Assembly (NCBI GenBank): GCA_964479945.1
Contig: CAYZNS010000004.1
Location: 13,715-77,714, forward strand
Direction: 5' to 3'
DNA: 64,000 nucleotides
Origin: an uncultured Candidatus Saccharibacteria bacterium
Lineage (GTDB): Bacteria; Patescibacteriota; Minisyncoccia; Ryanbacterales; 2-02-FULL-48-12
Part shown: positions 1,383-64,000 of the stretch, in pieces
How positions within the stretch are numbered: the stretch's first letter is position 1
Layout of the letters: every line of letters starts with the position of its first letter
Program-made: the position numbers and the translations under genes
Notes under the pieces: model-generated
What the model was told of the DNA's origin: nothing
Databases searched by the model: none
What the model saw: only the letters and a program-made list of their open reading frames with translations

Positions 1383-1390
1383 GATAGTAA

Positions 1391-1443
1391 CCCGTAAACC
1401 GTAACTCGTACAAAAAATTACGGATTACGAGTTATGAGTTACG
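1391..1443. repeat. hairpin spacer built from GTAACTCG / TTACGAG units
   Basis: ccgtaaaccgtaactcgta-caaaaaat-tacggattacgagttatgagttacg. Confidence 0.6.
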
Positions 1444-2013: not shown

Positions 2014-2728
2014 CGGAGATTACCGCATAGCAGCCATTGCCGGATTCTTCACCGGTGTTTTCATGTTGCCGGTGCTTTATAACCTTGCCATTGCATTCCC
2101 GTTTGGCTTGCCGTACGTGAGCATCGTTTTTATCATCCCTGTTTTCTGGGTAATTGGCATCTGGCTGGGAAAGGTTCTTTCCCGCTGGCTGGGCATCATG
2201 CCGCAGTTTTCGCGGTATGCGGCCGCCGGATTTTTGAGCTTCGCCATTGATTTCGGCATTACCAATACGCTTATATTCTTTACCGGCATTGCATCCGGGA
2301 GATGGTTTGCCGTATTTAAGGCGGCGGGTTATGTAGTGGCAAATGTTAACGCATATATATGGAACAAATATTGGGTATTCCGCCAATATACGCCGGACGA
2401 GCGTGTATCACTGCGCACAGTCGCGCGCGAATACGGCAAATTCCTGACGGTGAGCGTTATCGGTTTTGTTATCAATGTCTCCGTGGCGTCGCTGGTGGTG
2501 GATGTTATCCGGCCGCAGTTCGGTTTTGCGGAAAAAGCATGGGCAAATATTGCCCTTATAATAGCAACGGCAATAACCATCATTTGGAATTTCGCGGGGT
2601 ATAAATTGTTTGTTTTTAGAAAATCTGTGAATCAGCAAAACAATAATGGCAATGATGAGAGTACGGGTATTGATAATGAAATTCAAAAATCAATATTCAA
2701 AAATCAAAATTACAATTCAAAATTTTAA
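2006..2728 (+). CDS. GtrA-family membrane protein (polysaccharide synthesis/flippase-like)
   Basis: GtrA signature AYIWNKYWVF plus extra N-terminal TM segments; N/Q-rich low-complexity C-tail. Confidence 0.6.
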   Translation: MRDGDYRIAAIAGFFTGVFMLPVLYNLAIAFPFGLPYVSIVFIIPVFWVIGIWLGKVLSRWLGIMPQFSRYAAAGFLSFAIDFGITNTLIFFTGIASGRWFAVFKAAGYVVANVNAYIWNKYWVFRQYTPDERVSLRTVAREYGKFLTVSVIGFVINVSVASLVVDVIRPQFGFAEKAWANIALIIATAITIIWNFAGYKLFVFRKSVNQQNNNGNDESTGIDNEIQKSIFKNQNYNSKF

Positions 2729-2817
2729 ATTTTACACTGTAATTTTTCATTTTGCACTTTTAATTTTGCATTTCATAAGGTCTGGAATACCTGCATTTTT
2801 CGTGTTATCATGTCCTT

Positions 2818-4790: not shown

Positions 4791-5348
4791 TTGTATATGA
4801 ATAACGAAGGACAAGAAAATGAGAAAGAACAGTATGAACCGGAAGAGGGAGGATTGGACGCAACAAACTTATCAGCCAGAGAGGTAGGGCTTCGGCGGGA
4901 CCTTGCACAGTGCCGCAAGGAGAAGCAGGAGTATCTGCAAGGCTGGCAGCGGTGCCAAGCGGATGCGGTAAATTTCCGGCAGGAAGAAGAGAGGCGGCGC
5001 AAAGAATACGCGCTGTTTGCGGCGGAAGGCATTATACGGGATATTCTGAACGTACTTGCCACATTTCATCACGCGTTTACAGGAAAGGATGATAAGGATC
5101 CTTATACCCGCGGCTTTCGGCACATATATGCGCAACTGGAAGCAGTGCTCCAGAGGCATGGGGTTGAGCAAATCATGACAAACGAGGAGCCGTTTAATGC
5201 GCTGCTTCACGAAGCTGTTGAAAATGTGCCGGTAGAAGATGCGGAGCAAGACAATATGGTTATGGAAGAAGTGGAAAAAGGATATATGCTGCATGGGAAG
5301 GTTATAAAGCCGGCAAAAGTGAAGGTGGGACAGTACAAAGAAAATTAA
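4791..5348 (+). CDS. grpE: nucleotide exchange factor GrpE
   Basis: GrpE coiled-coil plus C-terminal beta domain (…MEEVEKGYMLHGKVIKPAKVKV); operon position. Confidence 0.8.
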   Translation: MYMNNEGQENEKEQYEPEEGGLDATNLSAREVGLRRDLAQCRKEKQEYLQGWQRCQADAVNFRQEEERRRKEYALFAAEGIIRDILNVLATFHHAFTGKDDKDPYTRGFRHIYAQLEAVLQRHGVEQIMTNEEPFNALLHEAVENVPVEDAEQDNMVMEEVEKGYMLHGKVIKPAKVKVGQYKEN

Positions 5349-5469
5349 AAATGCAAAAATAAAAATGAAAAATTACAAATCAAAATGTGAAAATGGAAAA
5401 AGAGGAATAGCGGCAATTTTACAACTTTAACATTGTAAAATAAGATTACAGGTTTATAAATAAAAAAAT

Positions 5470-7371
5470 ATGTCAAAGATACTAGGAATTGACCTCGGTA
5501 CCACCAACTCCGCCATGGCGGTGATGCAGGCGGGGCAGCCGAAAATAATAGAAAACAAAGAAGGGAACCGCACCACGCCGTCCATGGTAGCGGTCTCTAA
5601 AACGGCCGAGCGCCTGGCCGGTTTGCTTGCCAAGCGTCAGGCAATTACGAATCCTAAAAACACCATTTATTCCGCGAAGCGTCTGATCGGGCGCACGTTC
5701 ACGGACGCGCAGCTGGATAAGGACAAAGAAACCCTGCCATATGACATCCGCGCGTCGGCAAGCGGCGGCGTTGAGATTCGCATGGCGGATAAATGGTATA
5801 GGCCGGAGGAGATCTCTGCTATGGTTCTCCAGAAACTCAAGCATGATGCCGAAGAATACTTGGGCGAGAAAATAACGGAAGCGATTATAACCGTTCCTGC
5901 GTATTTTGACGACGATCAGCGGCAGGCAACCAAAAATGCGGGTGAGATAGCGGGCCTTACCGTGCGCCGAATTATCAACGAGCCCACGGCGGCCGCGCTT
6001 GCGTACGGGTTTGATAAAAAGAAGAACGAAAAGATAGTAGTGTATGATTTCGGCGGCGGCACGTTTGACGTATCAGTGCTGGAAATCGGCGACAATACCA
6101 TTGAGGTGCGCGCCACAGGCGGAGATACGCATTTGGGAGGGGATGATTTTGATCAGAAAATTATTGATCACCTTGTCGTGGAATTCAAGAAGGAATCCGG
6201 CATAGATATCTCAAAGGACGGCCTTGCCCTTCAGCGTCTTAAAGAAGCGGCGGAGAAAGCAAAACATGAATTATCTACTACGGTAGAGACGGAAATAAAT
6301 ATTCCCTTTATAACTTCCGGCGCGGACGGGCCGCAGCATCTCCTAATCAAGCTCGCGCGCGCCAAGTTGGAATCCCTGGTGAGTGAATATGTCTTACGCT
6401 CCGTGGAAATAACCAGGCAGGTAGTGCGCGATGCAAAATTTGAACTACACGCGATAGACGAAGTCATTTTGGTGGGCGGACAAACGCGCATGCCAGCCAT
6501 TGTAAATGCGGTGAAGGAACTGTTCGGCAAAGAGCCGAACAAGTCCATCAACCCGGATGAAGTGGTGGCGGTTGGAGCAGCTATTCAGGGCGGCATTATG
6601 CAGGGAGACGTAAAGGATGTTCTCCTTCTGGATGTAACACCGCTTTCGTTTGGCATTGAAACATTAGGGGGGGTATTTACGCGCCTTATAGAAAAAAATA
6701 CCACCATTCCCACGGCCAAAAGCCAGATATTTTCCACCGCCGCGGACAATCAAACGTCCGTGGAAGTGCACGTGCTGCAAGGGGAGCGGGAATTCGCGCG
6801 GGACAACAAAAGCTTGGGCCGGTTTATATTGGACGGTATCCCGCCTGCCCCCCGCGGCATGCCGCAAGTGGAGGTTACGTTTGACATTGATGCGAACGGC
6901 ATCCTCAATGTGAAAGCAAAAGACAAAGCGTCCGGCAAAGAACAATCCATTCGTATTGAAGCGTCTACCGGACTCTCCAAGGAAGAGATAGAGCGCATGA
7001 AGCAGGATGCGGCCGCGCATGCCGAGGAAGACAAGAAACGCAAAGAGACTGTGGAAATGAAAAATACGGCAGACGCGCTTATCTACACGGCGGAGAAGTC
7101 TCTCCGCGACGCGGGCGACAAAGCGCCGGAAGATATCCGCAAAGACGTGGAGACGAAAATAGAGGATCTCAAAAAAGCGAAGGAAGGGGATGACGCGCAG
7201 CAGATTCAAAACGTGTCCAGCGCGCTGCAAGCATCGCTTTCAAAGATAGGCGAGTATCTCTACAAGCAGCAGCCGCAAGAGAACAAAGGCACGCAATCAA
7301 CTGATGATAAGAAAGACAATGTGAAAGATGCGGAGTTCAAGGATGTAGAAGATAAGAATAAAGAATCATGA
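5470..7371 (+). CDS. dnaK: molecular chaperone DnaK (Hsp70)
   Basis: [18 protein letters not shown], full Hsp70 architecture, 633 aa. Confidence 0.95.
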
Positions 7372-7569
7372 ATCATGAATCATGAATTATGAAATATGGA
7401 AAACGTAAAACTCTAAACTCTAAGTCCTAAACAAGTCTCAAGTTCAAAGTGCAAAGTTCAAAAAGAGGTTTTTATGCTTTATGTTTTTATCTTCGAGTTT
7501 GTTTAGAGTTTAGGGTTTGGAACTTAGAATTTTTGTCCTTGATTCATAATTCTTACTTCATAATTCAAA
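7372..7569. repeat. heptamer-based imperfect palindromic spacer (catgaat / aactcta motifs and their reverse complements)
   Basis: tandem atcatga x3 at left edge mirrored by ttcataa repeats at right edge; nested inverted repeats seen directly. Confidence 0.6.
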
Positions 7570-8544
7570 ATGCTTTATACTGAAAGCATTATGACGAATG
7601 TTAAATCTTTCATTGTCGGCATAATCATAGTTGCGTCTTCTGTCCCTTTTTGGTTTTTCTATCGCGAGGCAATCGGCCTCAATGCAGGTAACGGCCTTGC
7701 CGTGTCTTACGCGCTGATATTGCTGACAATTAATCTTGCCGCAACGGCGCTTTTGCTTCTGTTCGCGGAACGCGCGCGCATACTTATTGTGGTGGCCGTG
7801 CTGAACGCGTTTTCGTTTCTTTATTTTTTTGGCGCTTCCGTAATTACGGGCATAGGTGCGTTTTTTCTTTTGGCGGCCGTGTGGTACGCGTACGAGCGGG
7901 TGCATGCGGAGATTGAAAGCCGTATTACATTTAACGTGTCCATTCTGTTGCGGCAGGGCATGCCTTCCGTTCTTACGGCGCTTGCCATAGCGCTTGCATT
8001 GGGATATTTTGTGCAAACCGCGAAAACGCCCGAGCGCATTACCATACGCGATATTATTCCCCGCGCGGTGTTTGAGGCCGTATTTGAGAATACCGTTCCC
8101 TATATTGGCACTGCGGCGCTTGAGGGTTTTAGCGCCAATCTCACGGTTGACGAATACATAGAGCGGCAGCTTACAAAAGGCGGGCTGGATATAACACAGC
8201 TCCCCGCCGGCGAGCGGGAACAAGTTTTTGCCCGCGCCCGGGAAGAGCTGTTTCGGCAGGTTTCCGACACGCTGCCGGAAACTTCCATTCAGGGTGATAC
8301 GCGCATCGGCGACGTATTGTATGACATTATTATTGCGCGAAGCGAGCAGGTACTCGCACCCTATCAGCAGTTTATCCCTTTTGCGTTTGCATTCGGACTC
8401 TTTTTATTTCTTCGTACGGTTGCGCTGCCATATGGGTGGGCAATTTCATGGATTATCCGCGGCGCCATAGCGCTGCTTCGGCGCGGAGGAGTGGTGGTGC
8501 GAACGGAGGAACAGGCTGTGAAAGAACGCATGTCTTGGGCATGA
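7570..8544 (+). CDS. hypothetical polytopic membrane protein
   Basis: 324-aa ORF with multiple hydrophobic helices; no recognisable family. Confidence 0.45.
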   Translation: MLYTESIMTNVKSFIVGIIIVASSVPFWFFYREAIGLNAGNGLAVSYALILLTINLAATALLLLFAERARILIVVAVLNAFSFLYFFGASVITGIGAFFLLAAVWYAYERVHAEIESRITFNVSILLRQGMPSVLTALAIALALGYFVQTAKTPERITIRDIIPRAVFEAVFENTVPYIGTAALEGFSANLTVDEYIERQLTKGGLDITQLPAGEREQVFARAREELFRQVSDTLPETSIQGDTRIGDVLYDIIIARSEQVLAPYQQFIPFAFAFGLFLFLRTVALPYGWAISWIIRGAIALLRRGGVVVRTEEQAVKERMSWA

Positions 8545-10937: not shown

Positions 10938-11073
10938 ATCCATGTTCTAATATGTATGTAATTGGTGTGAGTAATTAGTAGTTAGGAAAATTTTTGCAGT
11001 GAAATATATCAACTAGTCCTAAATACTAAATACCAGTTACTAAGGACTCAAATTTTTGTGAGAGCAAAAATTT

Positions 11074-12678
11074 ATGACCCGCACGGAACTTCTACAAAAA
11101 TTAAAAGCAAAACGCAAAGAACTTGCTGACCGGGAAGGTATTGAGCTGTTTATGGTATGTACCAACAAGGCGCTGGAGGAGACGGTAAAAGCAATGCCGG
11201 CGACGCTTGCGGATCTGGCGTTGGTAAAAGGTTGGGGGAAGACAAAGATTGCGAAGTACGGCACAGATGTATTGGATATCATCGTGCATGGCAATTTGGA
11301 AGATCAATCGCCAAGTTCACTTGGACGTCCGGTTTCCAAGTCAGAGGGGGCGGTGTTTTCTGTTGCAGAATTTTTGGATGCCGTCAATATTACACTCGCG
11401 CGGTTGGGGGCCGTGCGCGTGCAGGGAGAGGTCAGCGAGCTTAAAACGAGAGGGGCCGCCGTGTATTTTACGCTCAAAGACACTGAAGGAGAGGCAAGCG
11501 TGAAGTGTGTATTGTGGGCCTGGAAATTTGAACGCGAGTACAGCTATTTGGAAGACGGCATGGAAATAGTGGTGGACGCGCTGCCGGAAGTATATGCAAA
11601 ATTTGGAACGTTTGACCTCAAGGTGGAGCGGGTGGAGCCAGTTGGCGAAGGGGCGCTGCAAAAAGCGTTTGAAGCATTGAAGAAAAAATTGGAAGCAAAA
11701 GGATATTTTAATGCTGCTCGCAAACGCCCTATTCCCGCCATAGTGCGGCGTATCGGGGTTATTACATCCGAGAAAGGGGAAGCCATAAACGATTTTCTAA
11801 AAAACATCGGGGCATACGGATTTGAAATTGTCCTCACTGATGTGCGTGTGGAAGGAGCACAGGCGGAAGATACGATAGTATCCGCATTCCATCGCATGAA
11901 TAAGGAACGCCACGACCTAGACGTAATCTGCCTTATTCGTGGCGGCGGCGGGCTCGAGAATTTAAAAGCATTTAATACGGAGCGTGTTGCGGAAGCGGTG
12001 GCAACATCGCGCATCCCCGTGATGACTGGCATCGGCCATGAGCGCGATGTAACCATTGCGAGCTTGTCGTCCGATGCGGATTTTTCCACGCCTACGAAGG
12101 TGGCGGACGCAATACGAAGAGGCAGAGAGGACATGTTGCGCGCTATAGAAAGGCAGGCGCAAGATGCGTCTCAATGTGTAAAAGAATTGTTGCGGGAAGC
12201 CCTGCAAGCAGCCGCACTTCTGGCAGGCGAGCTGCAGCGCACGCCGGATAGGGTACTGGAACGCGCGCGCGTGCGTATAAGCGGCGCGGCTCATAGAATG
12301 GAGTCCGCATTAGGGCGCGTTTTTGCGGCCTTTAACCTTCTGGAGCGCAGGATCCGGGATGGCATGCATAGATACACCCGCATGCTTCAAGAAGCGCAGC
12401 ACCTCATATCCCGCGAGGCCGCGGGTATGCGCGAATACATGCAGGGCGCGCTGCAAACTATGGGGAAACGTATTGCAGTGGCTTCAGCCGCTCTTGTGCC
12501 GTTGAATCCAGCCGCCCCGTTACAGCGCGGGTATAGTATTGTGTATGGACCGGATGGGAAGGTGGTAAAAGATTCTGAATGTGTTACTATTGGTGAATAT
12601 GTTACCGTACGGCTCTATAAGGGAAAGATCAAATCAAAAGTTGAAGGCATAGATTTAAATGAAAACATTAAAGCATGA
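11074..12678 (+). CDS. xseA: exodeoxyribonuclease VII large subunit with N-terminal HRDC domain
   Basis: N-terminal ~70 aa match HRDC consensus (ELLQKLKAKRKELADREGIELFMVCTNKALEE…LALVKGWGKTKIAKYG); OB fold plus IRGGGGLENLKAFN…GIGHERD XseA core; xseB follows. Confidence 0.8.
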   Translation: MTRTELLQKLKAKRKELADREGIELFMVCTNKALEETVKAMPATLADLALVKGWGKTKIAKYGTDVLDIIVHGNLEDQSPSSLGRPVSKSEGAVFSVAEFLDAVNITLARLGAVRVQGEVSELKTRGAAVYFTLKDTEGEASVKCVLWAWKFEREYSYLEDGMEIVVDALPEVYAKFGTFDLKVERVEPVGEGALQKAFEALKKKLEAKGYFNAARKRPIPAIVRRIGVITSEKGEAINDFLKNIGAYGFEIVLTDVRVEGAQAEDTIVSAFHRMNKERHDLDVICLIRGGGGLENLKAFNTERVAEAVATSRIPVMTGIGHERDVTIASLSSDADFSTPTKVADAIRRGREDMLRAIERQAQDASQCVKELLREALQAAALLAGELQRTPDRVLERARVRISGAAHRMESALGRVFAAFNLLERRIRDGMHRYTRMLQEAQHLISREAAGMREYMQGALQTMGKRIAVASAALVPLNPAAPLQRGYSIVYGPDGKVVKDSECVTIGEYVTVRLYKGKIKSKVEGIDLNENIKA

Positions 12679-12741
12679 AAACATAAAAACAAAACAACTT
12701 GTTTTTATGCTTTTGTGTTTTCATGTTTTAATGAATTACAT

Positions 12742-12993
12742 ATGTCTTCCCAAAAACAAACAATAGAACAATCCCTTAAACGCCTCGAAAAGATCGTGGA
12801 AGAACTTAACGCACGCGACGTGGATGTTGAGGAAGGGCTTGCCAAATTCAAAGAAGGCGTGGAATTAATAAAGGCGTGCCGCAGCCAGCTGGGTCAGGCG
12901 GAAAATGAGTTTAAGAAATTACAAAAGGAGTTAGATGCTGATGATAAAAGTACTTTTTTTGAAGGAGGAGAAAATAATAGTGATGAATTATGA
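12742..12993 (+). CDS. xseB: exodeoxyribonuclease VII small subunit
   Basis: SLKRLEKIVEELNARDVDVEEGLAKFKEGVELIKACRSQL; ATG at 12742 (the track ORF begins at an upstream GTG). Confidence 0.75.
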   Translation: MSSQKQTIEQSLKRLEKIVEELNARDVDVEEGLAKFKEGVELIKACRSQLGQAENEFKKLQKELDADDKSTFFEGGENNSDEL

Positions 12994-13106
12994 AGCATGA
13001 ATTATGAATTACGGAGAAAAAAGAATTGCGAGTTTTATAATACTTTTCCATAATTCCATATTCATGATTCATGTAAATAGATGAGTAATCGTATTGATAG
13101 AAAATA

Positions 13107-20446: not shown

Positions 20447-20738
20447 CACAATTTACCATGAATCAAGAATTATGAATTATGGGATTTGAAAGTAATAAGA
20501 GCCTATCTCAAAAATAATGAGGAGCTGAAATCCTTAAAATTCGTTGCGAAAATTGCAAAAAATGAGGAGGCATAGCGAGCTATGGCGACGAGTTTTTTGC
20601 AATTTGCAGCCGAATTTTAAAGATTTCAGCCCTCAAGTGCCATAATTTGTTATATTTGCACGGTTATTTTTGAGATAGGCTCAAGTTAATGCTTCTTTTT
20701 TCCTTAATTCATAATTCAAGATTCATAATTCATATTTC
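20447..20738. repeat. 292-nt nested near-perfect palindrome forming the rpoB-rpoC spacer
   Basis: outer catgaatcaagaattatgaatt / aattcataattcaagattcataattcat; perfect 19-bp GAGCCTATCTCAAAAATAA/TTATTTTTGAGATAGGCTC; further nested arms. Confidence 0.7.
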
Positions 20739-23700
20739 ATGAACACTTTAGAAAAAGACAACATAATAGTAGATCAGAATTTTGACGCAATTGCCTTGCG
20801 GCTGGCTTCGCCCGCGCGCATGTTGGAGTGGTCGCATGGGGAAGTCTTGAAACCGGAAACCATCAACTACCGCACCCAGCGGCCGGAGCGCGACGGTTTG
20901 TTTTGCGAGCGCATATTCGGGCCAGAGAAGGATTACGAGTGTTACTGCGGAAAATACCGCCGCATCCGTTTTAAAGGCATCATCTGCGACAAATGCGGCG
21001 TTGAAGTTACGCGCGCGGTGGTGCGAAGAGAACGCATGGGGCATATTGCGCTGGCGTCTCCCGTTTCGCACATTTGGTTCTTACGCGGCGTGCCTTCCAA
21101 AATGAGCTTGCTCTTGGGCGTCTCCGTCAGCGATCTGGAGAAAGTAATTTATTTCGCGGGCTATATTGTACAGCATGTGGACGAGGATCGGCGCCGGGAG
21201 GTTTTGTCAGAGATTGAGCGCGAGTATAAATTGAAATTGAAAGCGGGCGTGCGGGACAAAGACACGCTGAAAGAGGCGGCTGACCAGGCAAAGTCGGAAG
21301 TAAAAAGCATCACGCGCATGCAGGTGCTCTCGGAAGTGGAATATCACCACATCAGCATGAAATACGCCAATCTCTTCCGCGCGGGCATAGGTGCCGAAGC
21401 GTTGTACGATATTTGCACGGGTGTTGATTTTACCGTGTTGGAATCAAGCTTGAATGAAGAAGCGGAGCGCTCTTCAAATCCGGTGCAGAAGCGAAAAATA
21501 TTAAAACGCTTGCAGCTTGTCCGGGCCATGCAGACTACCGGCATACGTCCCGAATGGATGTTTCTTACCATTATTCCAGTTATTCCGCCGGCGCTGCGGC
21601 CCATGGTTCCCCTTGATGGCGGGCGGCACGCAACCAGCGATGTCAACGATTTATACCGGAGAGTAATCAACCGGAACAACCGCTTGAAACGCCTCTATGA
21701 ACTCAAAGCGCCTGAAGTAATATGCCGCAATGAAAAGCGCATGCTGCAGGAAGCGGTGGACGCGTTGATAGACAACTCTATCCGGCGGGGACAGGCAGTG
21801 GTAACGTCGCAGGCGCAAAAGCGCCCGCTGCGTTCTCTCGCCGACATGCTCAAAGGCAAGCAAGGGCGGTTCCGGCAAAATTTGCTGGGCAAGCGCGTGG
21901 ATTACTCCGGGCGTTCCGTTATTGTGGTAGGGCCTGACTTGAAACTGCATCAGTGCGGCTTGCCGAAGCATATGGCATTAGAGTTGTTTCGTCCATTCGT
22001 AATCCGAAAAATCATTGAGCGCGGGCTTGCGTTTAACATCCGCGGCGCCGGACGCCTTATTGAAGACGCGACCCCCGACGTATGGGCGATTTTGGAAGAG
22101 GTGGTGGATGGCAAATACGTGCTCTTAAATCGCGCGCCCACGCTGCATCGCTTGGGAATCCAGGCATTCCAGCCGAAACTTATTGAAGGCCGCGCTATAC
22201 AGCTGCATCCGCTCTCGTGCGAAGCGTTTAATGCCGATTTCGACGGCGACCAGATGGCGGTGCACGTGCCGCTTACGAAAGAAGCGCAGTATGAGGCGCG
22301 TGAAATTATGGCGGCGGAAAAAAATTTGCTCAAACCCGGCACGGGCGATGCCATCGCGCGGCCGCAGCAAGATATCGTGCTTGGCTGCTACTGGCTGACG
22401 CAAGTAAAGGATGGCGCGCAAGGGGAGGGCAAAATATTTTCCGACCGCCAAGAAGCGTTGATGGCGCTGGAACACGGCGCGGTGAGTCTGCAGGCGAAGA
22501 TTAAAGTGCGGTTAACCGAGAATGAATTGGAGCTTACGGAAACAACCCCCGGTCGCATTATTTTCAATAACGCCCTGCCGGATGGATTTGAGTTTGTTAA
22601 TAACGGGCTCAATAAAAAATTTCTCACGGCGCTTACGAGTAAAATCGTACGCCAGTACGGCGCGGAGGGATCGGCCCCCATTCTGGACAGCATAAAAGAT
22701 ATTGGTTTCGAGTATGCCACGCGTTCGGGTATAAGCTGGGGCATCAGCGATCTGCCGGAGTTGACCCGCAAGAAAGAGATTATTGATCAAGCGCTCGCGG
22801 ATGCGCAAGTGGTTCGCGATCAGTTTGAGCGCGGACTGCTTACGGACACAGAGCGCTATGCCAAGGTGGTGGAAATTTGGAATACGAAAGTAAAGCCTCA
22901 AATAGACAAAGAGGTGCGGGAATCTTTGGATAAGGCAGGCCCTATTTTCTCCATGATCGATTCCGCCGCGCGCGGCTCTTGGGTACAGGTAAACCAAATG
23001 GCGGGCATGAAAGGCATGGTCGTCAATCCATCCGGCCGGATTATTGAGCTTCCCATTGTTTCCAGTTATAAAGAAGGCCTCAATGTGCTTGAATATTTCA
23101 TATCTACGCACGGCGCGCGTAAAGGCACGGCGGATACGGCATTAAAAACCGCGGCGGCCGGCTATTTGACGCGGCGTTTGGTTGATGTGGCCCAGGATGT
23201 GGTGGTAACGGAGGAAGATTGCAATGATGATAACGGCCTCATTGCGTACCGGAAGGATGTGGAAGAGGTAAATAAAAGTTTCGCTTCGCGCATATTCGGG
23301 CGCACGCTGCTGGCCGATGCGCGGCATCCGGAAACAAAGAAGGCGCTTGCGCGCGCCGGCGAAATAATTACCATTGACATGGCGGAACTTATTGATAAGT
23401 CCGGGCTTTCTACGGTGCATCTGCGCTCTCCCGTAACGTGCAAGACGCGCCGCGGCGTGTGCCAGGCATGTTATGGCTATGATTTGGGGACAAATTCGCA
23501 AGTGCGTATCGGCGAGGCGGTTGGCATTGTAGCGGCCCAGGCGATCGGCGAGCCCGGCACCCAGCTTACCATGCGCACATTCCATATCGGCGGCGTGGCG
23601 GGCGGCGGCGATATCACGCTTGGCTTGCCCCGCGTGGAAGAAATATTTGAAATACGCACGCCGAAGACGAAGGCGATTATTTCCGAGGTAAACGGAAAGG

Positions 23701-24410: not shown

Positions 24411-24469
24411 GCAGTTGTAAGTAGTAAGTTGTAAGTTCTAAATAAAAAAACTGATAAATAAACAGTAAA

Positions 24470-24540
24470 AACCCCCTTCTCTGACCCCACCGTAATCCTC
24501 CCCTTATGAAGGGAAGGAAAGAGGAGGGGTTTTTTGTTTT
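24470..24540 (+). terminator. two-tier GC hairpin plus T-run (rpoC terminator)
   Basis: CCCCTTCTCT…AGAGGAGGGG stem then GGTTTTTTGTTTT. Confidence 0.55.
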
Positions 24541-24674
24541 GAATAATGGGACTGTTGCCGAATGGCACTTTTAGCGATTTTTGCCCGAAAATATCCTTAT
24601 TTTTCAACAGGCAAATTTAAAAAAACGGCATTCGGCAACAGTCCCATAATACAAGAGCTCATAAACATTTGCGA

Positions 24675-24708
24675 ATTACGAAACTCCACCAACGTTGTCA
24701 TTGCGAGG
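24675..24708 (+). repeat. 34-nt dispersed motif ATTACGAAACTC(C/T)(ACC/GTC)AACGTTGTCATTGCGAGG, copy 1
   Basis: second copy at 53575-53608 with 4 mismatches. Confidence 0.6.
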
Positions 24709-24857
24709 GCTATCCGCGCCTAGGCGGATCCGCCTTGGGCGGAAAATTCGTACGTTTTTATTCCCAATTTATCCAAATGAAAACCGCCCGACCAATGCCA
24801 GACGGTTTAATGGCAAGAACTCGCAAATCAGAGCAAGTGCCAGGATTGTGATCAGTT

Positions 24858-25034
24858 AGAAAGTGTTTACAAACCCTTCGTAGCGAAGCTTTCCTGCTTT
24901 GAGCTGATACAAGGAAGGCAAGTAAAACGGCATAAGGCGTAGCAACGCTACGGTGAAATGCTGTTTTACGCAGCCTGACGCCGTAGCAGCCAAAGCAGGA
25001 AAGCTGCAGTAGAAGGGGTTTGTAAACACTTTCT
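24858..25034. repeat. 177-nt rod-like hairpin element with 5' GCCAGGATTGTGA box
   Basis: perfect 19-bp outer stem AGAAAGTGTTTACAAACCC/GGGTTTGTAAACACTTTCT, 14-bp second stem, internal GCTACGG/CCGTAGC stem. Confidence 0.6.
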
Positions 25035-25076
25035 TAGTGACTTACAACTTACAACTTTTTTTGCTATACTATACTC

Positions 25077-27733: not shown

Positions 27734-27855
27734 CTTTGAATAACGAAAACCGCAGGGAATGTGACTAACCGAGCTCTGCACACAAGCGAAGCGAAGTGTG
27801 AATAGCTCGGTTTGGCACATTCCAGATGTCAAATAATGCGTTTCGTTATTCAAAG
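27734..27855. repeat. long palindromic element, copy A of the GTGACTARCCGAGCT family
   Basis: outer inverted repeat CTTTGAATAACGAAA/TTTCGTTATTCAAAG; core boxes GTGACTAACCGAGCTC and AGCTCGGTTTGGCAC; inner hairpin CACAC…GTGTG. Confidence 0.75.
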
Positions 27856-27871
27856 TAAATAAGCAATACGT

Positions 27872-29124: not shown

Positions 29125-29217
29125 CTCGTAACTCGTAATCCGTAACTCGTAATCCGTACCAGGAAGATTAATAAGATAAAATTCCTTTGTACGAGTTACG
29201 GTTTACGGATTACGAAT
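29125..29217. repeat. hairpin of CTCGTAA/TTACGAG heptamer repeats between rpsR and ssb
   Basis: ctcgtaactcgtaatccgtaactcgtaatccgta … tacgagttacggtttacggattacga inverted arms. Confidence 0.7.
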
Positions 29218-29226: not shown

Positions 29227-29679
29227 TTAAAACGGTATTTCTTCCGGATTAACGTCGTCTTCGGGGTATTCCACGGTTGCAACATCTTCTTGTGGCGCTT
29301 TCCTTGCCGACGCCGCACCTGTGGTACCCCCGAGAGATGATCCGGTTGCGCGCGGGCCAAACTGGAAATTCTCCACAATTATCTCCGTGCGCGACTTTTT
29401 CTGCCCGTCCTGCCCGTCCCATGATCGCGTCTGCAGGCGGCCTTCTACATAGAGCGACCCGCCTTTTTTCATGTATTGGTGGATTAACTCTGCCGGTTTT
29501 CCGAATGCAACAAGATTATGAAATTCAGCCTGCTGCTGCTTCTGGCCGCTTTGATCCGTCCAGGTACGGTTTGTTGCCAAGCCAAAATTCACAACCGGTT
29601 TGCCGGAAGGAAGCGTTTTTAATTCCGGATCCCGCGTGAGATTTCCAATAAGAAGCGCTTTGTTTAGATTCATATTCAC
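29227..29679 (-). CDS. ssb: single-stranded DNA-binding protein
   Basis: OB fold, Gly/Gln-rich linker and acidic EEIPF C-terminal tip. Confidence 0.9.
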   Translation of the reverse strand: MNMNLNKALLIGNLTRDPELKTLPSGKPVVNFGLATNRTWTDQSGQKQQQAEFHNLVAFGKPAELIHQYMKKGGSLYVEGRLQTRSWDGQDGQKKSRTEIIVENFQFGPRATGSSLGGTTGAASARKAPQEDVATVEYPEDDVNPEEIPF

Positions 29680-29767
29680 GTATAACGTGTAACATGTAAC
29701 GTATAACGCAAGAAAAATATATGTATTGTTTCTTCACGTTCTACGTTCTACGCTTCACGTTTTATGA

Positions 29768-30520: not shown

Positions 30521-30824
30521 ATATCCATAAAAAGAGGATGTACTTCCTAACCGCTTTTCTTTTGTGGAAAGAATGATGGAGGAGAGAGGGCAAATAGGAT
30601 CGGCACTAAATATACATAAGAGGCCGTTACTCCTTACAATCGCCTTCATCGTTCTCTCTATGAAATGAGAGGAGAGATTGGAATAGTTCTTTGTTGAAAT
30701 AACATAAGCGTTCAAACGTGGAACGTAAAGCGTAAAGCGTTAAAACGAATAGCCGGAGAAGTTCTTTGAATTAAATAGTGCTGTTGCTCATATAGATTTC
30801 TGGCCGCTTTTGAGGAGATAGAAA

Positions 30825-31256: not shown

Positions 31257-31266
31257 GAGGGGTGTC

Positions 31267-32536: not shown

Positions 32537-32557
32537 AAAGTGACACGGGCATAGTTT

Positions 32558-41635: not shown

Positions 41636-41680
41636 AAGGAAAATTATAGCAGTATTTATGCAAATTCAAAGTTAAAACAA

Positions 41681-41704
41681 ATATCCCGCTGAAAGCGGGA
41701 TACC
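41681..41704 (-). terminator. GC hairpin terminator (ATCCCGC-tttcag-GCGGGAT family)
   Basis: stem-loop with A/T flanks downstream of prfA on the minus strand. Confidence 0.5.
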
Positions 41705-41736
41705 AAAATTTTGCATTTTGATTTTTAAATTTTGAA

Positions 41737-42456
41737 TTATTTTCTGAACGCCTTCACAATCTTCCCGAAATCGCCGGCGAGAATGTTTTCAATGTTATGC
41801 CAATTTTTTTTGATGCGGTGGTCGGTAATGCGGTCTTGTAGAAAATTATAGGTGCGGATTTTCTCGGAGCGGTCTCCGGTGCCGATTTGTTCTTTGCGCG
41901 CCTGCGCTACGTTGCCGTATTTTTGCTCATGTTCCATGTCGTATAATTTTGCGCGTAGAATGCCAAGTGCTCGCTCGCGGTTTTGCTGTTGCGAACGCTC
42001 GGCCTGGGAGCGGACCACAATACCGGTAGGTTTATGAAGTATACGCACGGCCGTTTCTACTTTGTTCACATTCTGCCCGCCGGCGCCGCCCGCGCGCGAA
42101 AACGTAACTTCAAGCTCATCGGACTTGAGTTCAACTTCGGATGCTTCCACTTCCGGCAATACCGCCACAGAGACGGTGGACGTATGGATGCGCCCGGACT
42201 TTTCGGTTTTGGGAACGCGCTGCACCCGGTGTACGCCGGATTCCTGCCGGTAGTCTTCAAAAGCGTCTTCGCCGCGAATGCTGAAAATAAGCTCGCGGAT
42301 GCCGCCCAAATCGTTTGCCGATTCATCCAGCGCCGCCGCGCGCCAGCCGCGCTGCTGGGCATAGCGGATGTACATATCGGCAAGCGTGCGCGCAAACAGG
42401 GCGGCCTCCAAACCACCTGCCCCTGCGCGGATTTCTATAATGATGGCGTCCCTCAT
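41737..42456 (-). CDS. prfA: peptide chain release factor 1 lacking N-terminal domain 1
   Basis: PKT tripeptide and GGQ motif; start ATG overlaps the rpmE stop in TAATG; a longer in-frame ORF upstream would run antisense-frame through rpmE. Confidence 0.7.
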
Positions 42457-47031: not shown

Positions 47032-47067
47032 CAAGTTAAAAGTTAAAAGTGCAAAATGCAAAGTTAT

Positions 47068-47090
47068 GGTATCCCGCTTTCAGCGGGATG
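47068..47090 (+). terminator. GC hairpin terminator (GGTATCCCGC-tttcag-GCGGGATG) inside an A/T heptamer palindrome
   Basis: stem-loop flanked by gttaaaagtgcaaaatgcaaag / ttttgcactttgcactttg inverted arms. Confidence 0.5.
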
Positions 47091-47165
47091 ATTATATAAA
47101 TCCGTGAGCGAAGCGAACACCAAAATTTTGCACTTTGCACTTTGAATTTTGAACTAATATAGCAT

Positions 47166-48649: not shown

Positions 48650-48687
48650 AAAATGCAAAATGTAAAAATCAAAATGTAAAATTTTTG

Positions 48688-48709
48688 TATTCCGGCGAAG
48701 CCGGAATCA
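48688..48709 (+). terminator. GC hairpin terminator (TTCCGGC-gaa-GCCGGAA) inside an aaatg/cattt heptamer palindrome
   Basis: seen directly; between ferredoxin and SOD genes. Confidence 0.5.
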
Positions 48710-48778
48710 TTTTAGCATTTTACATTGTCATTTTGCATTTTGATTTTTACATTTTAAATTATAAACTAACAAGAAAAT

Positions 48779-50624: not shown

Positions 50625-50660
50625 AAAATTAAAAGTTAAAAATTAAAAGTGCAAAGTGTT

Positions 50661-50684
50661 GGTATTCCGGCTGCGCCGGAATGA
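50661..50684 (+). terminator. GC hairpin terminator (TTCCGGC-tgc-GCCGGAA)
   Basis: same family as 48688 with compensatory loop change. Confidence 0.5.
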
Positions 50685-50806
50685 ATGTACTGTGAATTAC
50701 GAAATGCATTATTTGACATCTGGAATGTGTCATTTCGTAATTCACAGAATGTATATAATCCGTGAGCGAAGCGAACACCAAAATTTTGAATTTTGCACTT
50801 TAAATT

Positions 50807-53500
50807 TTGAATTTATATATGACTCCATTTCATAATTTTACGGTAAAAGCCCAGGAAGCGCTCAAGCGGGCCCACGAGCTCGCCATTGAGCGCGGGCACA
50901 ATCAGATAGACGCGCTCCATCTTTTAAGCGCGCTGTTGCTGCAGGATGACGGCGTTGTCATTTCTCTTTTGGATAAGCTGGAAGTGGATACGCAGCTGAT
51001 GCTGGATTCTATTCTTGATAAGCTCAACGGCGGCACGCGCGGCGACCTTTTGACGCCCTCGCCGCAGATCTACCTGACGCAGGAATTAGCGCGGGTTTTG
51101 GAAGAATCGCATAAAGCTGCGGCCCAGCTCAACGACGAATTTATCTCAACGGAACATTTATTTATAGCGCTTTTGGACGTGCCGTCCCGTGCGGCCGATA
51201 TGCTTTCCAAATTCCGCATAGATAAAGAAGTTGTGTTACGGATCCTTCACGAAATCCGCGGATCGCAGACCGTTACCGACATGGAGCCGGAGACAAAATA
51301 CCAATCGCTGGAAAAATACGCGCGCAATTTGACGCGCCTTGCCAAAGAAGAAAAGCTGGACCCGGTCATCGGCCGGGAAGAAGAAGTGCGCCGCGTGATG
51401 CAGATTCTCTCGCGCCGCACCAAAAATAATCCCGTGCTCATCGGCGAGCCCGGCGTGGGGAAGACGGCTATTGTGGAGGGCTTGGCCCAGCGCATCGTAA
51501 TGGGCGACGTGCCAGAAAGCTTAAAAGAGAGGGAACTCATCGCGCTGGATCTTGGCGCGTTGGTTGCGGGTACTAAGTATCGGGGCGAATTTGAAGAGCG
51601 CTTGAAAGCGGTGCTTCGGGAAATTGACCGCGCGGCGGGGAAAATACTCTTGTTCATAGATGAGCTTCATACGCTGGTTGGCGCGGGTGCGGCCGAGGGC
51701 GCCATTGACGCCTCTAACATGTTGAAGCCCGCGCTTGCCCGCGGGGAATTGCATGCCATAGGAGCTACCACGCTAAAGGAATATCAAAAATATATTGAAC
51801 GCGATATGGCGTTGGCGCGGCGATTCCAGCCCGTGTATGTGGAAGAGCCATCAATAGATGACGCTATCGCCATCCTCCGCGGCTTAAAGCAGAAATACGA
51901 GCTTCATCACGGCGTGCGCATCACCGATAGCGCAATTGTAGGGGCGGTACAGCTCTCAAGCCGATACATTGCAGACCGGTTTCTGCCGGACAAAGCGGTT
52001 GATTTGATAGATGAAGCCGCCTCCTCTCTGCGGTTGGATATTGATTCCATGCCGAAAGATCTTGACCGGGCGCGCCGCGAGATTATGCGCCTGGAGATTG
52101 AGAAAGAAGCGCTCAAGCGCGAGGCGGAGCCGTCGGCTAAGCAGAAAGTCAAGAAAATTCAAAAACAAATTGAGGAGCTCAAGGAAAAAACGGGGGGACT
52201 GGAGCTCAAATGGAAAAATGAAAAGGAGGCGATCGTCGGCATCCGCGGAATGAAAAAGGAACTCGACGCGATGCGCCAGGAATCCGATGCGGCGGAACGC
52301 GCGGGGAATTTGGCGAAAGTTGCCGAAATCCGCTACGGCCGTATTCCCGCGTTGGAAAAAAATATCAGCGATGAAGAGGCGCGCCTGGGCAAACTGCAAT
52401 CCGCGCGCCATATATTGAAAGAAAGCGTTGCGGAAGAAGACATCGCCGAGGTAATTTCCCGATGGACGGGGGTACCCGTGATGCGCATGCTGGAGGAGGA
52501 GGCAAAGAAATTGCTCACCATGGAGGACGTGCTTCAAAAACGCGTGGTGGGGCAGGAAGAAGCAATCTCCAAAGTAGCGCAGGCAATCCGCCGTTCGCGC
52601 GCGGGCGTAGGAGAAGAGGACCGGCCGGTTGGCTCGTTTATGTTTTTGGGCCCCACGGGTGTCGGGAAAACTGAGCTTGCTCGCGCCTTGGCCGAGTTTC
52701 TTTTCAACGATGAAAAATCGCTTATCCGCGTGGATATGTCTGAATATATGGAGCGTCACACGGTGTCTAAGTTTATCGGATCTCCTCCCGGATACGTGGG
52801 GCATGAAGAAGGCGGGCAGCTGACTGAGCTTATCCGCCACCGGCCGTATTCCGTGGTGCTGTTTGACGAAATTGAAAAAGCGCATCCAGAGGTGTTTAAC
52901 ATCATGCTGCAAGTGCTTGACAATGGCCGGCTTACGGACGCGAAAGGTCGGCATGTTAATTTCAAAAATTCTGTCATTATCATGACGTCCAATATCGGCT
53001 CCGAGTACGTGCGCGAGATGGAACGCTTGGGATTTGCGGCCGGCGAGGAAGATACAAAAGAGCGCCGTGAAGATAATTTGAAATCAAAAATCCGGCAGGC
53101 ATTGGAGCGCAACTTCCGCCCCGAGTTCTTAAACCGCCTTGATGAAATTTTGATATTCAACAGCTTATCGCCTGAAATTTTGAGCGAGATAGTGAAAATC
53201 CAGCTTGACCGCGTTGCGCGTCGTCTGGAGCAAAAACAAATTGCGCTTAAAGTAAGCGCGGAAGCTCGCAAGTTCTTAGCGCGCGAAGGCCATGATCCGC
53301 ATTATGGCGCGCGGCCGCTTAAGCGTTATATTCAAAATCACATCCTAAACCCGCTTGCGGAACATATTGTAGGCGGCAAAATCAAGCCGGACAGCGCCAT
53401 ACGTGTGGAAATTCGCGATGGACGGCTGGTACTGGAGACCGATCGCAGGCACGTGAAAAAGGAAGCGCGCAAAGAAGAGCCGGTTGCCGCAGGGGTGTAA
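50807..53500 (+). CDS. clpB: ATP-dependent chaperone ClpB
   Basis: Clp-N, two AAA+ modules with Walker motifs, middle coiled-coil domain, 897 aa. Confidence 0.95.
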
Positions 53501-56122: not shown

Positions 56123-56315
56123 CATAAAATTTGAGCGAGCGAAAATTTTATCTCTACCTACAAATTACTCACACTAATTACAAATTTTAGTTTTAAAATT
56201 TGTTTTCGCTCAAATTTTGAGTAATTAGTAATTAGTATTTTGTAATTAGGACAAGGAAGATTAAGCAGAGAAAGCAAATATTGCTTTATTTCTACGTTTT
56301 GGTATACTATCCACC

Positions 56316-58646: not shown

Positions 58647-59788
58647 TATTTATATAATGCAATAGTTTTTTGCATCATCGTTTCAAGTGAAAATTCCGCC
58701 GTGACGCGCCTTTTATTTTCTTCCCCCATTTGTTTGCGCAAGTCCGCGTTTTGGCAAAGCTGAATAATTGAATCGGCAAGATCGGTAAGAGAAATAGGGG
58801 ACACAAGAAATCCGTTTTTTTCGTGTTCAATAATATCCGGCACGCCGCCAACGCGCGTTGCTACCACCGGCAAACCGGCAAGACCTGCCTCCAGAAGCGT
58901 GTACGGCAGTCCTTCTTTAAGCGACGGAAGTACGAATATGTCAAATGCTTTAAGATAAGGAGCGGCCGGCGATTTAGAAATAAAGAAAACATGGTTTTCC
59001 AACCCCAACTTTGCACTTTGCACTTTGCACTTTGCACTTTCTTCTCCCCATCCTATAAGGCAAAGTTTCGCTTCCGGAAACTTCTGAAGAACCGCCGGCA
59101 GAGCAACTATCAAAAAATCAAGCCCTTTATTTTTGGTCCACTCCGCGATAGTGCCAATTACCAGTGGATATTCCTGGCCGAACAATTCATGCTGTGCTTG
59201 GGCGCGCGGCAAGAATTGCAAGACCTCGATGCCATTGTGTATCAGCGTTACTTTGGAGGATGGCGCGACGTTGTATGATAACGCGGCTCGCCGATCGTTT
59301 TCGGAAATAACAATAACATGATCATGCAGGAGTACCGTTATTTTGCTTGCATAGCGTATAAGCAAGCGCTGCCAATGCGGACGCCATGTTTCTTCAAAAG
59401 GCAAGCCGTGCACTGTGAACACGCGCATGATGTTTTTGGCGGCAAGCGCGTTATAAAAAAAAGCAGCCGCTCCCGCGATACCTCCTGCTTTGGAGCTGTT
59501 CGTATGTATAATGTCCGGTTGGAAACGGCGGTATACGGCAAGAAGTTCAAAAAAAGAGATGATATCTTTGAGCGGATTGATTGATTTTTGAAATCCGGCA
59601 ATGGGGAAGACCACTACGTGTTCTTCGGCTAGTTTTTCCGTAAGCGCGCCACCGGGAACGGTTGCAACCGCTGTTTCAAATTCTTCCCGCGGCAGATGTG
59701 TGGCAAGATCAAACACATACCGCTGGGCGCCCCCCCATACGGATTTTGTGATGACAAACAGGATTTTTTTTCGTTTATCGTTTTGCAT
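58643..59788 (-). CDS. GT4-family glycosyltransferase carrying an in-frame TGCAAAG heptamer tract
   Basis: GT-B fold, EX7E-like …LPSLKEGLPYTLLEAGLAGLPVVAT; CTTTGCA x4 at 59009-59036 encodes ESAKCKVQSAK. Confidence 0.8.
   Translation of the reverse strand: MQNDKRKKILFVITKSVWGGAQRYVFDLATHLPREEFETAVATVPGGALTEKLAEEHVVVFPIAGFQKSINPLKDIISFFELLAVYRRFQPDIIHTNSSKAGGIAGAAAFFYNALAAKNIMRVFTVHGLPFEETWRPHWQRLLIRYASKITVLLHDHVIVISENDRRAALSYNVAPSSKVTLIHNGIEVLQFLPRAQAQHELFGQEYPLVIGTIAEWTKNKGLDFLIVALPAVLQKFPEAKLCLIGWGEESAKCKVQSAKLGLENHVFFISKSPAAPYLKAFDIFVLPSLKEGLPYTLLEAGLAGLPVVATRVGGVPDIIEHEKNGFLVSPISLTDLADSIIQLCQNADLRKQMGEENKRRVTAEFSLETMMQKTIALYKY
59009..59036 (-). repeat. CTTTGCA x4 heptamer tandem repeat inside a coding sequence
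   Basis: seen directly; the same heptamer builds intergenic hairpins at 47120-47150 and 7450-7465. Confidence 0.9.
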
Positions 59789-63250: not shown

Positions 63251-64000
63251 AAGTCTGTTATATAGTGCCGGAAATTGCGGAAGATGCCTCAACGCATTTT
63301 GAGCATAAGCGGGAAATTATACAGGAGCTTCGGGGCGATATTGAATTTTTTGTATATGCTCCGACTCTTATAAGCATCGTGAAAATCAAATTTGCTTATT
63401 TTTTCCGCGGCGTTCGCATATTCTATGTGCATTATTCATTCAAGGGCGCGCTCGTTGCCATACTCCTTACAAAACTTTTTGGCGGCAGGGTCTTTTACTG
63501 GAACTGCGGTATGCCATGGTTGTATAAGCGCGGGTGGCTGGAGGAGAAATTATTTAGATTTATTTTACGGAACTCGATATTTGTTACCGGCACGAATTCT
63601 CTTGCGGAACACTATGCTGATCGGTATGGGCTTGATCGCGCGCGCGTACGCGTAGTGCCGAATTATATTCGCGTCTCGCATATGCAGGGAATTACGCGCG
63701 ATTCAGCGCGTAGGGAACTTGAGATTCCATCGGGTAAAAAGGTTGTACTTTTTCTGCATCGCCTCTCGCGGCGCAAGGGGGCGCATTTTTTGCCGGATAT
63801 TTTAAAAGAGTTTGCGATCAGGGAAGACGTACTATTTTTGATAGTCGGCGACGGCCCCGAACGTACCAATACCGAGTTACGAGTTACGAGTTACGAGTTA
63901 CAAAACAGGGTTCGTTTTGAGGGAAATGTGCCAAATAATCGTGTGCCAATTTATTTCGCAGCCGCGGATGTTTTTCTTATGCCTTCCGAAGAAGAGGGGA
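63238..64000 (+). CDS. GT4-family glycosyltransferase (3'-truncated by window) with in-frame TTACGAG tract
   Basis: ATG at 63238 overlapping the upstream stop; …LFLIVGDGPERTNTELRVTSYELQNRVRF…FLMPSEEEG; not in the ORF track because it has no in-window stop. Confidence 0.65.
63877..63897 (+). repeat. TTACGAG x3 heptamer tandem repeat inside a coding sequence
   Basis: seen directly. Confidence 0.9.

Follow-up and report, generated by a model that had tools for sequence, protein, structure and literature searches.

Palindromic spacers with heptamer-array arms at gene junctions of a Parcubacteria-like bacterium

Background

Why should a palindrome whose two arms are arrays of seven-nucleotide units lie between genes of a classical operon? 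The palindrome in question fills the junction of ssb and rpsR at positions 29125..29215 (minus strand) of a 64-kb stretch of bacterial DNA, here called the window, and a sister hairpin lies between rpsF and ssb, so that both elements are inside the rpsF-ssb-rpsR operon. An earlier note on this DNA had proposed that each intergenic spacer is a hairpin built from its own heptamer, with the upstream array mirrored as its reverse complement downstream, and that an active process of repeat expansion operates genome-wide, a claim that could be followed over ~72 kb of the host genome, namely the 64-kb window and 7.8 kb beyond it (the tail of contig L236). The reading developed here, to which about half of our confidence goes, is that these spacers would belong to a few families of dispersed non-coding palindromic repeats with heptamer-array arms, copied between loci and then remodelled by slippage.

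Structure and periodicity of the spacers

The left arm of the ssb-rpsR element is made of CTCGTAA and TCCGTAA units (29125-29152) and the right arm of TTACGAG and TTACGGA units (29190-29215). Tandem Repeats Finder (TRF) reports CTCGTAA x4.0 at 29125-29152 and TTACGGA x2.7 at 29196-29214, and the corresponding inverted repeat (I14; arms 29126-29151 and 29190-29215) is 88% complementary, with an interval of 38 nt between the four-unit left arm and its reverse complement. The sense-strand RNA folds with an energy of -43.2 kcal/mol (z = -7.0), a stability reached by 0 of 200 shuffles, and the DNA-strand fold has -21.8 kcal/mol (z = -5.2). The operon was identified by protein profiles, S18 with Pfam and SSB and S6 with NCBIfam. 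The sister hairpin at 29678..29761 (minus strand), detected by TRF and by a test for reverse-complement partners, has ACGTATA/ACGTGTA and ACGTTCT arms and fills an S6-ssb junction of 88 nt, as against 9-14 nt in relatives. Paired elements in general start at, or no more than 13 nt past, the upstream stop codon and end no more than 20 nt, and usually within 5 nt, before the downstream start, and at dnaK, xseA, xseB and rpoC one of the arms includes the stop or the start codon.

Period 7 accounts for 38 of the 72 TRF rows in the window, ~20-fold the average of 1.8 in 30 block-wise dinucleotide shuffles, none of which gave more than 5. The density of such arrays, 5.9 per 10 kb, is ~12-fold the median of ~0.5 at about 160 recA loci from other bacteria, which bears out the assertion that the feature is not generic to bacteria; the control loci came from RecA-based contig scans, peptide patterns having been too conserved, and all are at ≤67% identity. 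Intergenic DNA has peaks of self-identity at lags 7, 14 and 21 (0.306, 0.294 and 0.282, over a baseline of ~0.262), and coding DNA has the codon period alone, with no peak at these lags.

A reverse-complement partner lies within the same spacer for 26 of 36 arrays, beating all shuffled controls. To say that each spacer is a heptamer hairpin nevertheless goes too far: of 41 spacers that are 25 nt or longer, 13-15 have a significant period-7 signal and 13 are hairpins with mirrored arrays. The examples cited in support of the idea were likewise mixed, the 29125 hairpin and others being paired, but the arrays at 5341-5401 and 30724-40 being unpaired and that at 56220-49 weakly paired. Very stable spacers without heptamers occur at 27734, 31413, 32300, 33238 and 59789. 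Palindromes make up ~1/4 of the non-coding DNA of the window and fill ~1/3 of its intergenic gaps; their period-7 arrays are 3-9 units long, and this one genome has six or more units of unrelated sequence (TRF). The architecture is not strictly heptameric, because the xseA-xseB junction holds a palindrome of period-8 units (AAAACATA) at 12659..12732 (plus strand; I9/I10, TRF, z -5.8).

Families and shared unit order

Contrary to the supposition that every spacer has a heptamer of its own, identical units, in identical variant order, recur at several spacers. CGTAA-type units are found at 1387, 29125, 61217, 61827 and 63873, ATGAATY-type units at 7363, 12983, 20458 and 61177, and A-rich units (AAAATGC/AAGTGCA/AAGTTAA) at 2679, 5341, 41650, 47033, 48650 and 50625. 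The second palindromic copy of the CGTAA family, at 1387..1443 (plus strand), has the left arm GTAACCCGTAAACCGTAACTCGTAC, with a unit order near-identical to that of the ssb-rpsR element (TRF, alignment). When the elements at 1383 and 29121 are aligned (A1), the left arms, GTAA(C/T)CCGTAAACCGTAACTCGTACAAA, agree at 29 of 30 positions and the right arms, TACGGATTACGAGTTA, at 16 of 16; neighbours and loops differ, the loop being 6 nt in the copy at 1387 and ~30 nt in the ssb-rpsR copy. Six ATGAATY arms share the arrangement (ATGAATY)n-AAGGAAAAA (A2), an ending that is also present in the copies of two related contigs, L164 and L166, and in one in-frame stretch of a GT4 glycosyltransferase gene, and four A-rich copies can be aligned with one another (A3). 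Because independent slippage would not reproduce shared orders of variant units, whole elements appear to have been copied between loci.

Judged by its sequence, the window comes from the chromosome of a Parcubacteria-like bacterium of the Candidate Phyla Radiation (CPR, or Patescibacteria). Its RecA has ≤67% identity to any GTDB species representative, the top matches being Parcubacteria; in RpoB, a clade of relatives, among them 'Parcubacteria group bacterium Gr01-1014_29', stands at 79-89% identity and the next tier, of Giovannoni-, Sung- and Niyogibacteria, at ~70%. Seven syntenic contigs of relatives, recovered via RpoB homologues of 79-89% identity, carry 0-2 period-7 arrays per 5-23 kb (TRF), and the rpoB-rpoC junction measures -41 to +18 nt in six of the seven as compared to 292 nt in the window. 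Since the relatives are compact at the same junctions and hold so few arrays, the window spacers are lineage-specific gains. The proposal of active repeat expansion is supported as one of lineage-specific accumulation, but current activity finds no support in 3-4 assemblies, each from a different sample, which agree at 100% throughout 13 kb and its arrays. On L167, the contig closest by RpoB (89%), a near-perfect, non-periodic hairpin of ~115 nt stands at rpoB-rpoC (4750-4870), and this short contig ends ~70 nt past it; palindromes seem to have landed repeatedly at the rpoB-rpoC junction.

Families of the window are present in relatives L164, L166 and L168 at orthologous and non-orthologous junctions, with shared 11-12-mers. 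L164 has GAATCATGAATTAAGAATTAAG at the orthologous xseB-pepF junction (a GAATCAT/GAATTAA array), and L168 has GTAAGTT x3 and a terminator following rpoC, orthologous to the window array. L166 holds CTTGATTCTTGATTCAT at the junction of pepF with a Na-Ca exchanger gene, a non-orthologous site, and a 97-nt hairpin of ACGAAT/ATTCGTT units at ssb-rpsR, where its sequence is unlike that of the window.

The full architecture is also found in a distant genome, GW2011_GWB1_40_14 (L002; 64% RpoB identity), which has 6.2 period-7 arrays per 10 kb, families of its own and one A-rich, GC-core element resembling those of the window; one pair of its elements has 79% identity over the full length, in the loops as well as the arms (A5). 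The window and L002 also have an 18-mer in common (AAAAATCAAAATGCAAAA), which was dropped as proof of homology because it is too frequent in A/T-rich viral DNA (45 hits). Inverted heptamer arrays are reused at four spacers of L218 (IMGVR_UViG_2820946191_000001), a prophage-like contig binned with Holophagaceae, so that palindromes with heptamer arms extend beyond the CPR bacteria. Two of the L218 copies are near-identical in their unique core, with a mean column identity of 83% across the whole alignment (A6), and in one arm they differ in which heptamer units are present and how many, a pattern that fits copying and then slippage. At 1384-5900 of this contig, mirrored GAGCTTA/TAAGTTC arrays flank a conserved core at several spacers. 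Five viral or prophage contigs (L218, L208, L217, L203 and L201), found with a (TTACGAG)3 or an A-rich query, have 6-18 period-7 arrays per 10 kb, of several units.

Copying of whole elements and the alternatives

If the spacers are dispersed repeats, their families would be comparable to foldback, miniature inverted-repeat transposable (MITE) or REPIN elements in which both arms are short tandem arrays of 7-nt units, and whole elements would have been copied to new gene junctions in this lineage. After insertion, arrays would gain, lose and homogenise units through slipped-strand mispairing, and other small palindromic modules would nest in the loops. Three loop modules recur: one of 42 nt at 27734 and 50625, one of 36 nt at 24683 and 53583, and one containing GCGAAGC at 47100 and 50780. 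The complementarity of the arms may be kept by the youth of an element or by hairpin-templated repair. An element would span the upstream stop to the downstream start because ancestral junctions were only ~10 nt, and, as RNA or single-stranded DNA, it would fold back and reunite the two codons; insertions in rpoBC and rpsF-ssb-rpsR were likely tolerated because such self-folding juxtaposes stop and start. Members of the A/T-rich family with GC-rich cores are probably also transcript-end hairpins, and some right arms would supply promoter-like boxes.

A number of observations weigh against the copying of whole elements. No transposase, RAYT/HUH enzyme or reverse transcriptase was found with Pfam and NCBIfam profiles in the window and the 7.8 kb beyond it, and no target-site duplication is visible flanking the two best-matched copies (1383 and 29121). 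Window copies share arms and usually not loops, unlike classical MITE families. The stop context of rpoC, GGTGTAAG, is similar to the GTAAGTT unit, a point in favour of growth in place, and the orthologous arrays in L164 and L168 imply that some elements are old rather than recent insertions. The comparison of strains for unit-number changes, which the earlier note had put forward as a check, brought out no difference in unit number or in presence and absence among L001, L236, L237 and L238 (3-4 assemblies), and the ~72 kb covered is a limited part of the genome.

Growth in place, the unlikely but substantial rival, or perhaps contributor, because some arrays such as that at the rpoC stop look locally seeded, would have each array begin as a local seed by a stop or start codon that slippage with a 7-nt preference amplified. 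The opposite arm would be made complementary by intrastrand template switching at a quasi-palindrome, and shared units would stem from seeds that were alike, such as ATGA where stop and start overlap or GTAA around a stop. In several arrays the real stop codon does lie in the first units (dnaK, xseB, rpoC), the terminal sequence of rpoC resembling its own array unit in the manner just described; perfect arrays lie within coding regions without a palindrome partner; arms pair in several registers (I11/I16/I17); and heptamers are, on the account of Mrazek 2007 given in PMC4679880, the commonest long simple-sequence-repeat unit in prokaryotes, by way of polymerase slippage. A variant-unit order common to distant loci, however, is very unlikely to come from independent slippage, the same 11-12-mers stand at non-orthologous junctions of relatives, and the whole-element identity in L002 extends to the loops.

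A second alternative, improbable in our estimation, is that the spacers are selected RNA structures, whether terminators, stems for RNase III processing or 3'-end stabilisation, or translational-coupling stems, the heptamer periodicity being a by-product or a means of providing three-frame stops (7 = 1 mod 3) and promoter boxes. The position of the elements, exactly from stop to start, suits such a role, as do the presence of TAA, TGA or TAG in most left-arm units, the hairpin kept at ssb-rpsR in L166 despite its different sequence, and a compensated pair change in the GC-rich cores. All four of the cores reported earlier, with their compensatory differences, are indeed present (41683, 47071, 48689 and 50664), in the variants ATCCCGC...GCGGGAT and ATTCCGGC...GCCGGAAT, between which one pair is changed with compensation and one pair is additional. 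One core, at 41704-41680, passes a simple terminator scan, in the sense direction, but the other three of the four lack a U-tail and the remaining families have no GC core, so that only the A/T-rich family with GC cores could, at most, be described as bidirectional terminators. Promoter and terminator consensus scans lie modestly, by +1.6 to +3.5 sd, over shuffle means. The -10-like boxes pointed out in the earlier note can be seen in the right arms: CATAAT in AATTCAT arrays lies in or after right arms, as does TTGAAC/TTGCAC in the A-rich family, and with the conserved TGCTATACT before ftsK these too would suit structures that supply promoter boxes.

Against selection on RNA stands the symmetry of the two strands. 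The heptamer stems are almost wholly Watson-Crick, with ~5% G-U pairs, and sense and antisense fold energies are equal at the heptamer hairpins. Two other spacers, at 10683-11073 (upstream of xseA) and 16929-17281 (upstream of rpoB), have a much stronger sense fold, with 24 versus 5 and 20 versus 11 G-U pairs, respectively, a pattern that would be expected for genuine structured RNAs or leaders; neither has an Rfam match. Because these two spacers show a sense bias, the strand test is able to detect selection at the RNA level, and the near-perfect, unbiased pairing of the heptamer palindromes makes them look like symmetric objects at the DNA level, or young duplications, rather than long-selected RNA structures. 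An Rfam scan of the window returned five tRNAs and no match at the hairpins. Moreover, close relatives manage with 10-nt junctions, ordinary terminators serve elsewhere in this genome, and terminators within rpoBC and rpsF-ssb-rpsR would require new promoters.

It is very improbable that the arrays are primarily protein-binding sites, repeated every 7 nt and recognised by an RNA-binding protein of the cold-shock or S1 type or by a DNA-binding regulator, with the inverted copy secondary. A binder of the cold-shock or S1 type has been proposed for the TAACTGA repeats of Beggiatoaceae, the right arms likewise end a few bases before start codons, and some units, GTAAGTT and GAATCAT, are conserved across relatives, but at least six unrelated units share one genome and the strongest regularity is the complementarity of the arms, not a motif. 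Chance and assembly artefact can be dismissed: shuffle controls exclude the former, and although palindromes do disturb assembly (L001 begins at a palindrome centre, and its 3 mismatches to the window all fall within the first 25 bases), four contigs of independent origin, assembled from different samples (L001, L236, L237 and L238), match the window identically through 6 or more arrays, and orthologous arrays exist in other genomes, so that the artefact named by the earlier note as grounds for refutation is not what was found. Integron attC sites, CRISPR arrays and telomere-like repeats were considered and dropped, there being no integrase or cas genes, housekeeping genes on the flanks, and arrays that are internal.

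Heptamer arrays within glycosyltransferase genes

Perfect heptamer arrays also lie within coding sequence, in three of five GT4 paralogs and at the same alignment columns, the helix after a GxGP motif. One GT4 gene has an ATGAATC-like in-frame array and then a perfect (TTACGAG)4.9 in its N-terminal domain (61175..61250, plus strand) and a perfect in-frame (TTACGAG)4.3 at 61827..61856 (plus strand), encoding LRVTSYELRV in the helix. Another paralog carries a perfect in-frame (CGAGTTA)4.1 at 63873..63901 (plus strand), and a third a perfect in-frame (GCAAAGT)4.7 at 59008..59040 (minus strand), giving KCKVQSAKL. The arrays (59008-40, 61217-50, 61827-56 and 63873-901) are 100% perfect and in frame, with a unit that is not a multiple of 3, and they bring no change of length relative to paralogs with ordinary sequence at these columns. 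Because a 7-nt slip would shift the reading frame of the gene, they look like contingency (phase-variable) loci. No variation in unit number was seen at them: L236, L237 and L238 are 100% identical, and each of these proteins, present on 3-4 contigs, forms a cluster with a single member; P0244 is the same GT4 protein with a different start call.

A bolder proposal, in which we place little confidence, would unite these arrays with the spacers. The elements would be made and spread by an undescribed process, perhaps a copying activity that is hairpin-primed or templated in some other way and that deposits 7-nt units, together with their mirror image, where a stop and a start codon meet. It would do without a classical transposase, would be at work in some CPR bacteria and, it appears, in certain phage or prophage genomes (L218), and could overwrite short coding segments in frame, as in the three GT4 paralogs.

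Comparison with known repeats

Heptanucleotide short tandemly repeated repetitive (STRR) sequences are reportedly a feature of 'variable but structured' intergenic regions in Anabaena and Nostoc. STRR1-3, with the units CCCCAGT, TTGGTCA and CAACAGT, belong to heterocystous cyanobacteria. The window elements resemble them in their 7-nt tandem units, mostly intergenic position, several dispersed families per genome, and hairpins with nested very small repeats; apart from the in-frame GT4 arrays, they are non-coding heptanucleotide tandem arrays in families at 2-6 loci. They differ in that the host is Parcubacteria-like and the units (CTCGTAA, ATGAATY, GTAAGTT, AAAATGC and others) are unrelated to STRR1-3, and in that the arrays are short (3-9 units) and a mirrored pair spanning the whole spacer from stop to start dominates. 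The TAACTGA repeats of marine Beggiatoaceae, some Cyanobacteria and Bacteroidetes are similarly nearly all intergenic, often end just before a start codon and have a patchy distribution and a mechanism of transfer that is not known, but they consist of a single unit in almost only direct repeats (1 inverted case in 170 sets), whereas here many units occur and inverted pairing is the rule (PMC4679880).

Repetitive extragenic palindromic (REP) sequences, bacterial interspersed mosaic elements (BIMEs) and REPINs are mobilised by RAYT transposases and have GC-rich units of 20-40 nt with a conserved head (PMC3116915, PMC3333891). Like them, the window elements are intergenic imperfect palindromes after stop codons, also within operons, with inverted doublets, mosaic or nested structure and lineage expansions. 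Unlike them, the arms consist of A/T-rich heptamers over 20-50 nt and lack a shared head, although the doublet-like symmetry is present, and no RAYT (Y1 HUH transposase) was found among the ~65 genes that the window and the L236 tail contain. Bacterial MITEs and palindromic elements such as Correia/NEMIS, ERIC, RUP and the Rickettsia RPE are 60-300 bp long (PMC3184786, PMC2229807). With these the window elements share a non-autonomous nature, inverted arms at gene junctions and co-transcription, RPE being sometimes in frame and some elements supplying promoters or terminators, and the 13 hairpin spacers have complementary arms above the null, as terminal inverted repeats would be. They depart from MITEs in their periodic arms, in the absence of a target-site duplication at the two best-matched copies, and in loops that are not conserved in the window; similarity over whole elements is seen in L002 and L218.

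Outside the bacteria, eukaryotic foldback transposons (Drosophila FB, Galileo, Tetris) have inverted arms of tandem repeats (PMC4079207, PMC4168063), and selfish palindromic repeats occupy the bloated organelle genomes of Volvox (PMC2670323). These have in common with the window elements long inverted arms of short tandem repeats, variable in number and in their centres, that proliferate in non-coding DNA; domain of life and scale are different, and no homology is implied. The window elements thus combine features of known kinds of repeat yet depart from STRR, REP and MITE sequences in defining traits, and literature searches returned no description of such elements in CPR bacteria.

Other features of the window

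The genes of the window, identified with Pfam and NCBIfam profiles (~60 open reading frames, ORFs), include hrcA-grpE-dnaK, xseAB, pepF, rpoB (1054 aa), rpoC, ftsK, recA, rpsF-ssb-rpsR, ychF, dnaE, a prfB-like gene, rpsB-tsf, clpB and the cluster of GT4 glycosyltransferases. Among the ATGAATY palindromes, that after dnaK at 7355..7581 (plus strand; I3) has outer arms at 7355-7403 and 7533-7581, within which both the dnaK stop and the start codon of the next gene lie, and inner AAACTCT arms at 7408-7423 and 7503-7518. The xseB-pepF copy is at 12983..13072 (plus strand; TRF, partner test), with an orthologous array in L164. At 20457..20741 (plus strand), between rpoB and rpoC, ATGAATY outer arms enclose three more nested inverted repeats (I11/I16/I17); the 292-nt spacer forms one nested hairpin of ~125 bp (-122 kcal/mol, z -14), and the rpoC ATG is inside the right arm. 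The 3' end of the pepF ORF has apparently taken up an array, since its last codons (ATAATTCATAATTCTTAA, 14880-14897) are a pair of AATTCAT-family units.

Downstream of rpoC, GTAAGTT (24413-24441) and AACTTAC (25040-25057) arrays bracket the 666-nt rpoC-ftsK spacer (24413..25057, plus strand; z -13), with further hairpins and a terminator-like stem between them. In the same spacer, at 24696-24745, there is a REP-like module, (G)TCATTGCGAGG ... CTCGCAATGAC, which recurs in L169 (9640-9735) and in 16 copies in an unrelated IMG/VR contig, L203; it is a second class of small repeat in the same spacers. The extended -10 box TGCTATACT is conserved 7-10 nt before the ftsK ATG in the window (25055-25079), L164 (9515-9535) and L169 (9808-9830), and no Shine-Dalgarno sequence was found before ftsK, nor before rpoC and other genes. 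An extended -10 box so near the ATG, without a Shine-Dalgarno sequence, suggests that mRNAs in this clade may be leaderless or near-leaderless.

Of the A-rich elements, that at 41650..41738 (minus strand), with the core ATCCCGC-TGAAA-GCGGGAT, is the one that passes the terminator scan. The element at 47033..47155 (plus strand; I4) comprises an AAGTTAA/AAGTGCA arm, a GC core, a GCGAAGC module and a TTTGCAC/TTTGAAC arm; that at 48650..48760 (plus strand; I8) has the core ATTCCGGC-GAAG-CCGGAAT and arms that are 90% complementary, with unit order mirrored; and that at 50625..50817 (plus strand; I18) contains an extra nested palindrome, the nested module being common to spacer 27734-27871. GCGAAGC, known as an exceptionally stable DNA mini-hairpin, stands in the core or adjacent module of three of these elements (47098-47118, 48693-48703 and 50776-50796). 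The A-rich heptamer array at 5341..5401 (plus strand), upstream of dnaK, has no partner above the null. An A/T-rich heptamer palindrome (AAATTCA... / ...ATTTTGC) at 2676..2776 (plus strand; I2) is centred on the stop codon of a GtrA-like gene. GTAATTAG/CTAAATA arrays occupy 10950..11045 (plus strand), and their unit is found also at 56126-56249, where a hairpin (56126-56218) is followed by an AGTAATT array (56220-56249) with a weak partner (56126..56249, plus strand; I22).

Just upstream of hrcA-grpE-dnaK, a perfect CIRCE-type inverted repeat, ATTAGCACTC-N9-GAGTGCTAAT, lies at 4072-4100 and overlaps a match to a TTGACA-N17-TATTAT promoter. From the rpsF operon to ychF, which are adjacent or nearly so in L164 and L162, ~3 kb (30800-33760) are taken up by small hypothetical ORFs and by non-coding DNA with very strong folds (31413-31792, z -6.8; 32300-32655, z -8.0; 33238-33759, z -11.4), with no Rfam or Pfam hits in this interval.

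Implications

On a practical level, such palindromes break assemblies, as at the ends of L001 and L167, and extend or overwrite the ends of ORFs. They also link scattered reports of heptamer repeats, in cyanobacteria, Beggiatoaceae and phages, to a form that can be searched for, namely mirrored arrays. CPR genomes are regarded as small, streamlined and repeat-poor, yet here long palindromes are found even in rpoBC and rpsF-ssb-rpsR, at junctions that sister lineages keep at 10 nt. This raises the question of how palindromes spread, and how those of 100-300 bp stay stable, with minimal repair systems, and of how genes stay expressed across such inserts.

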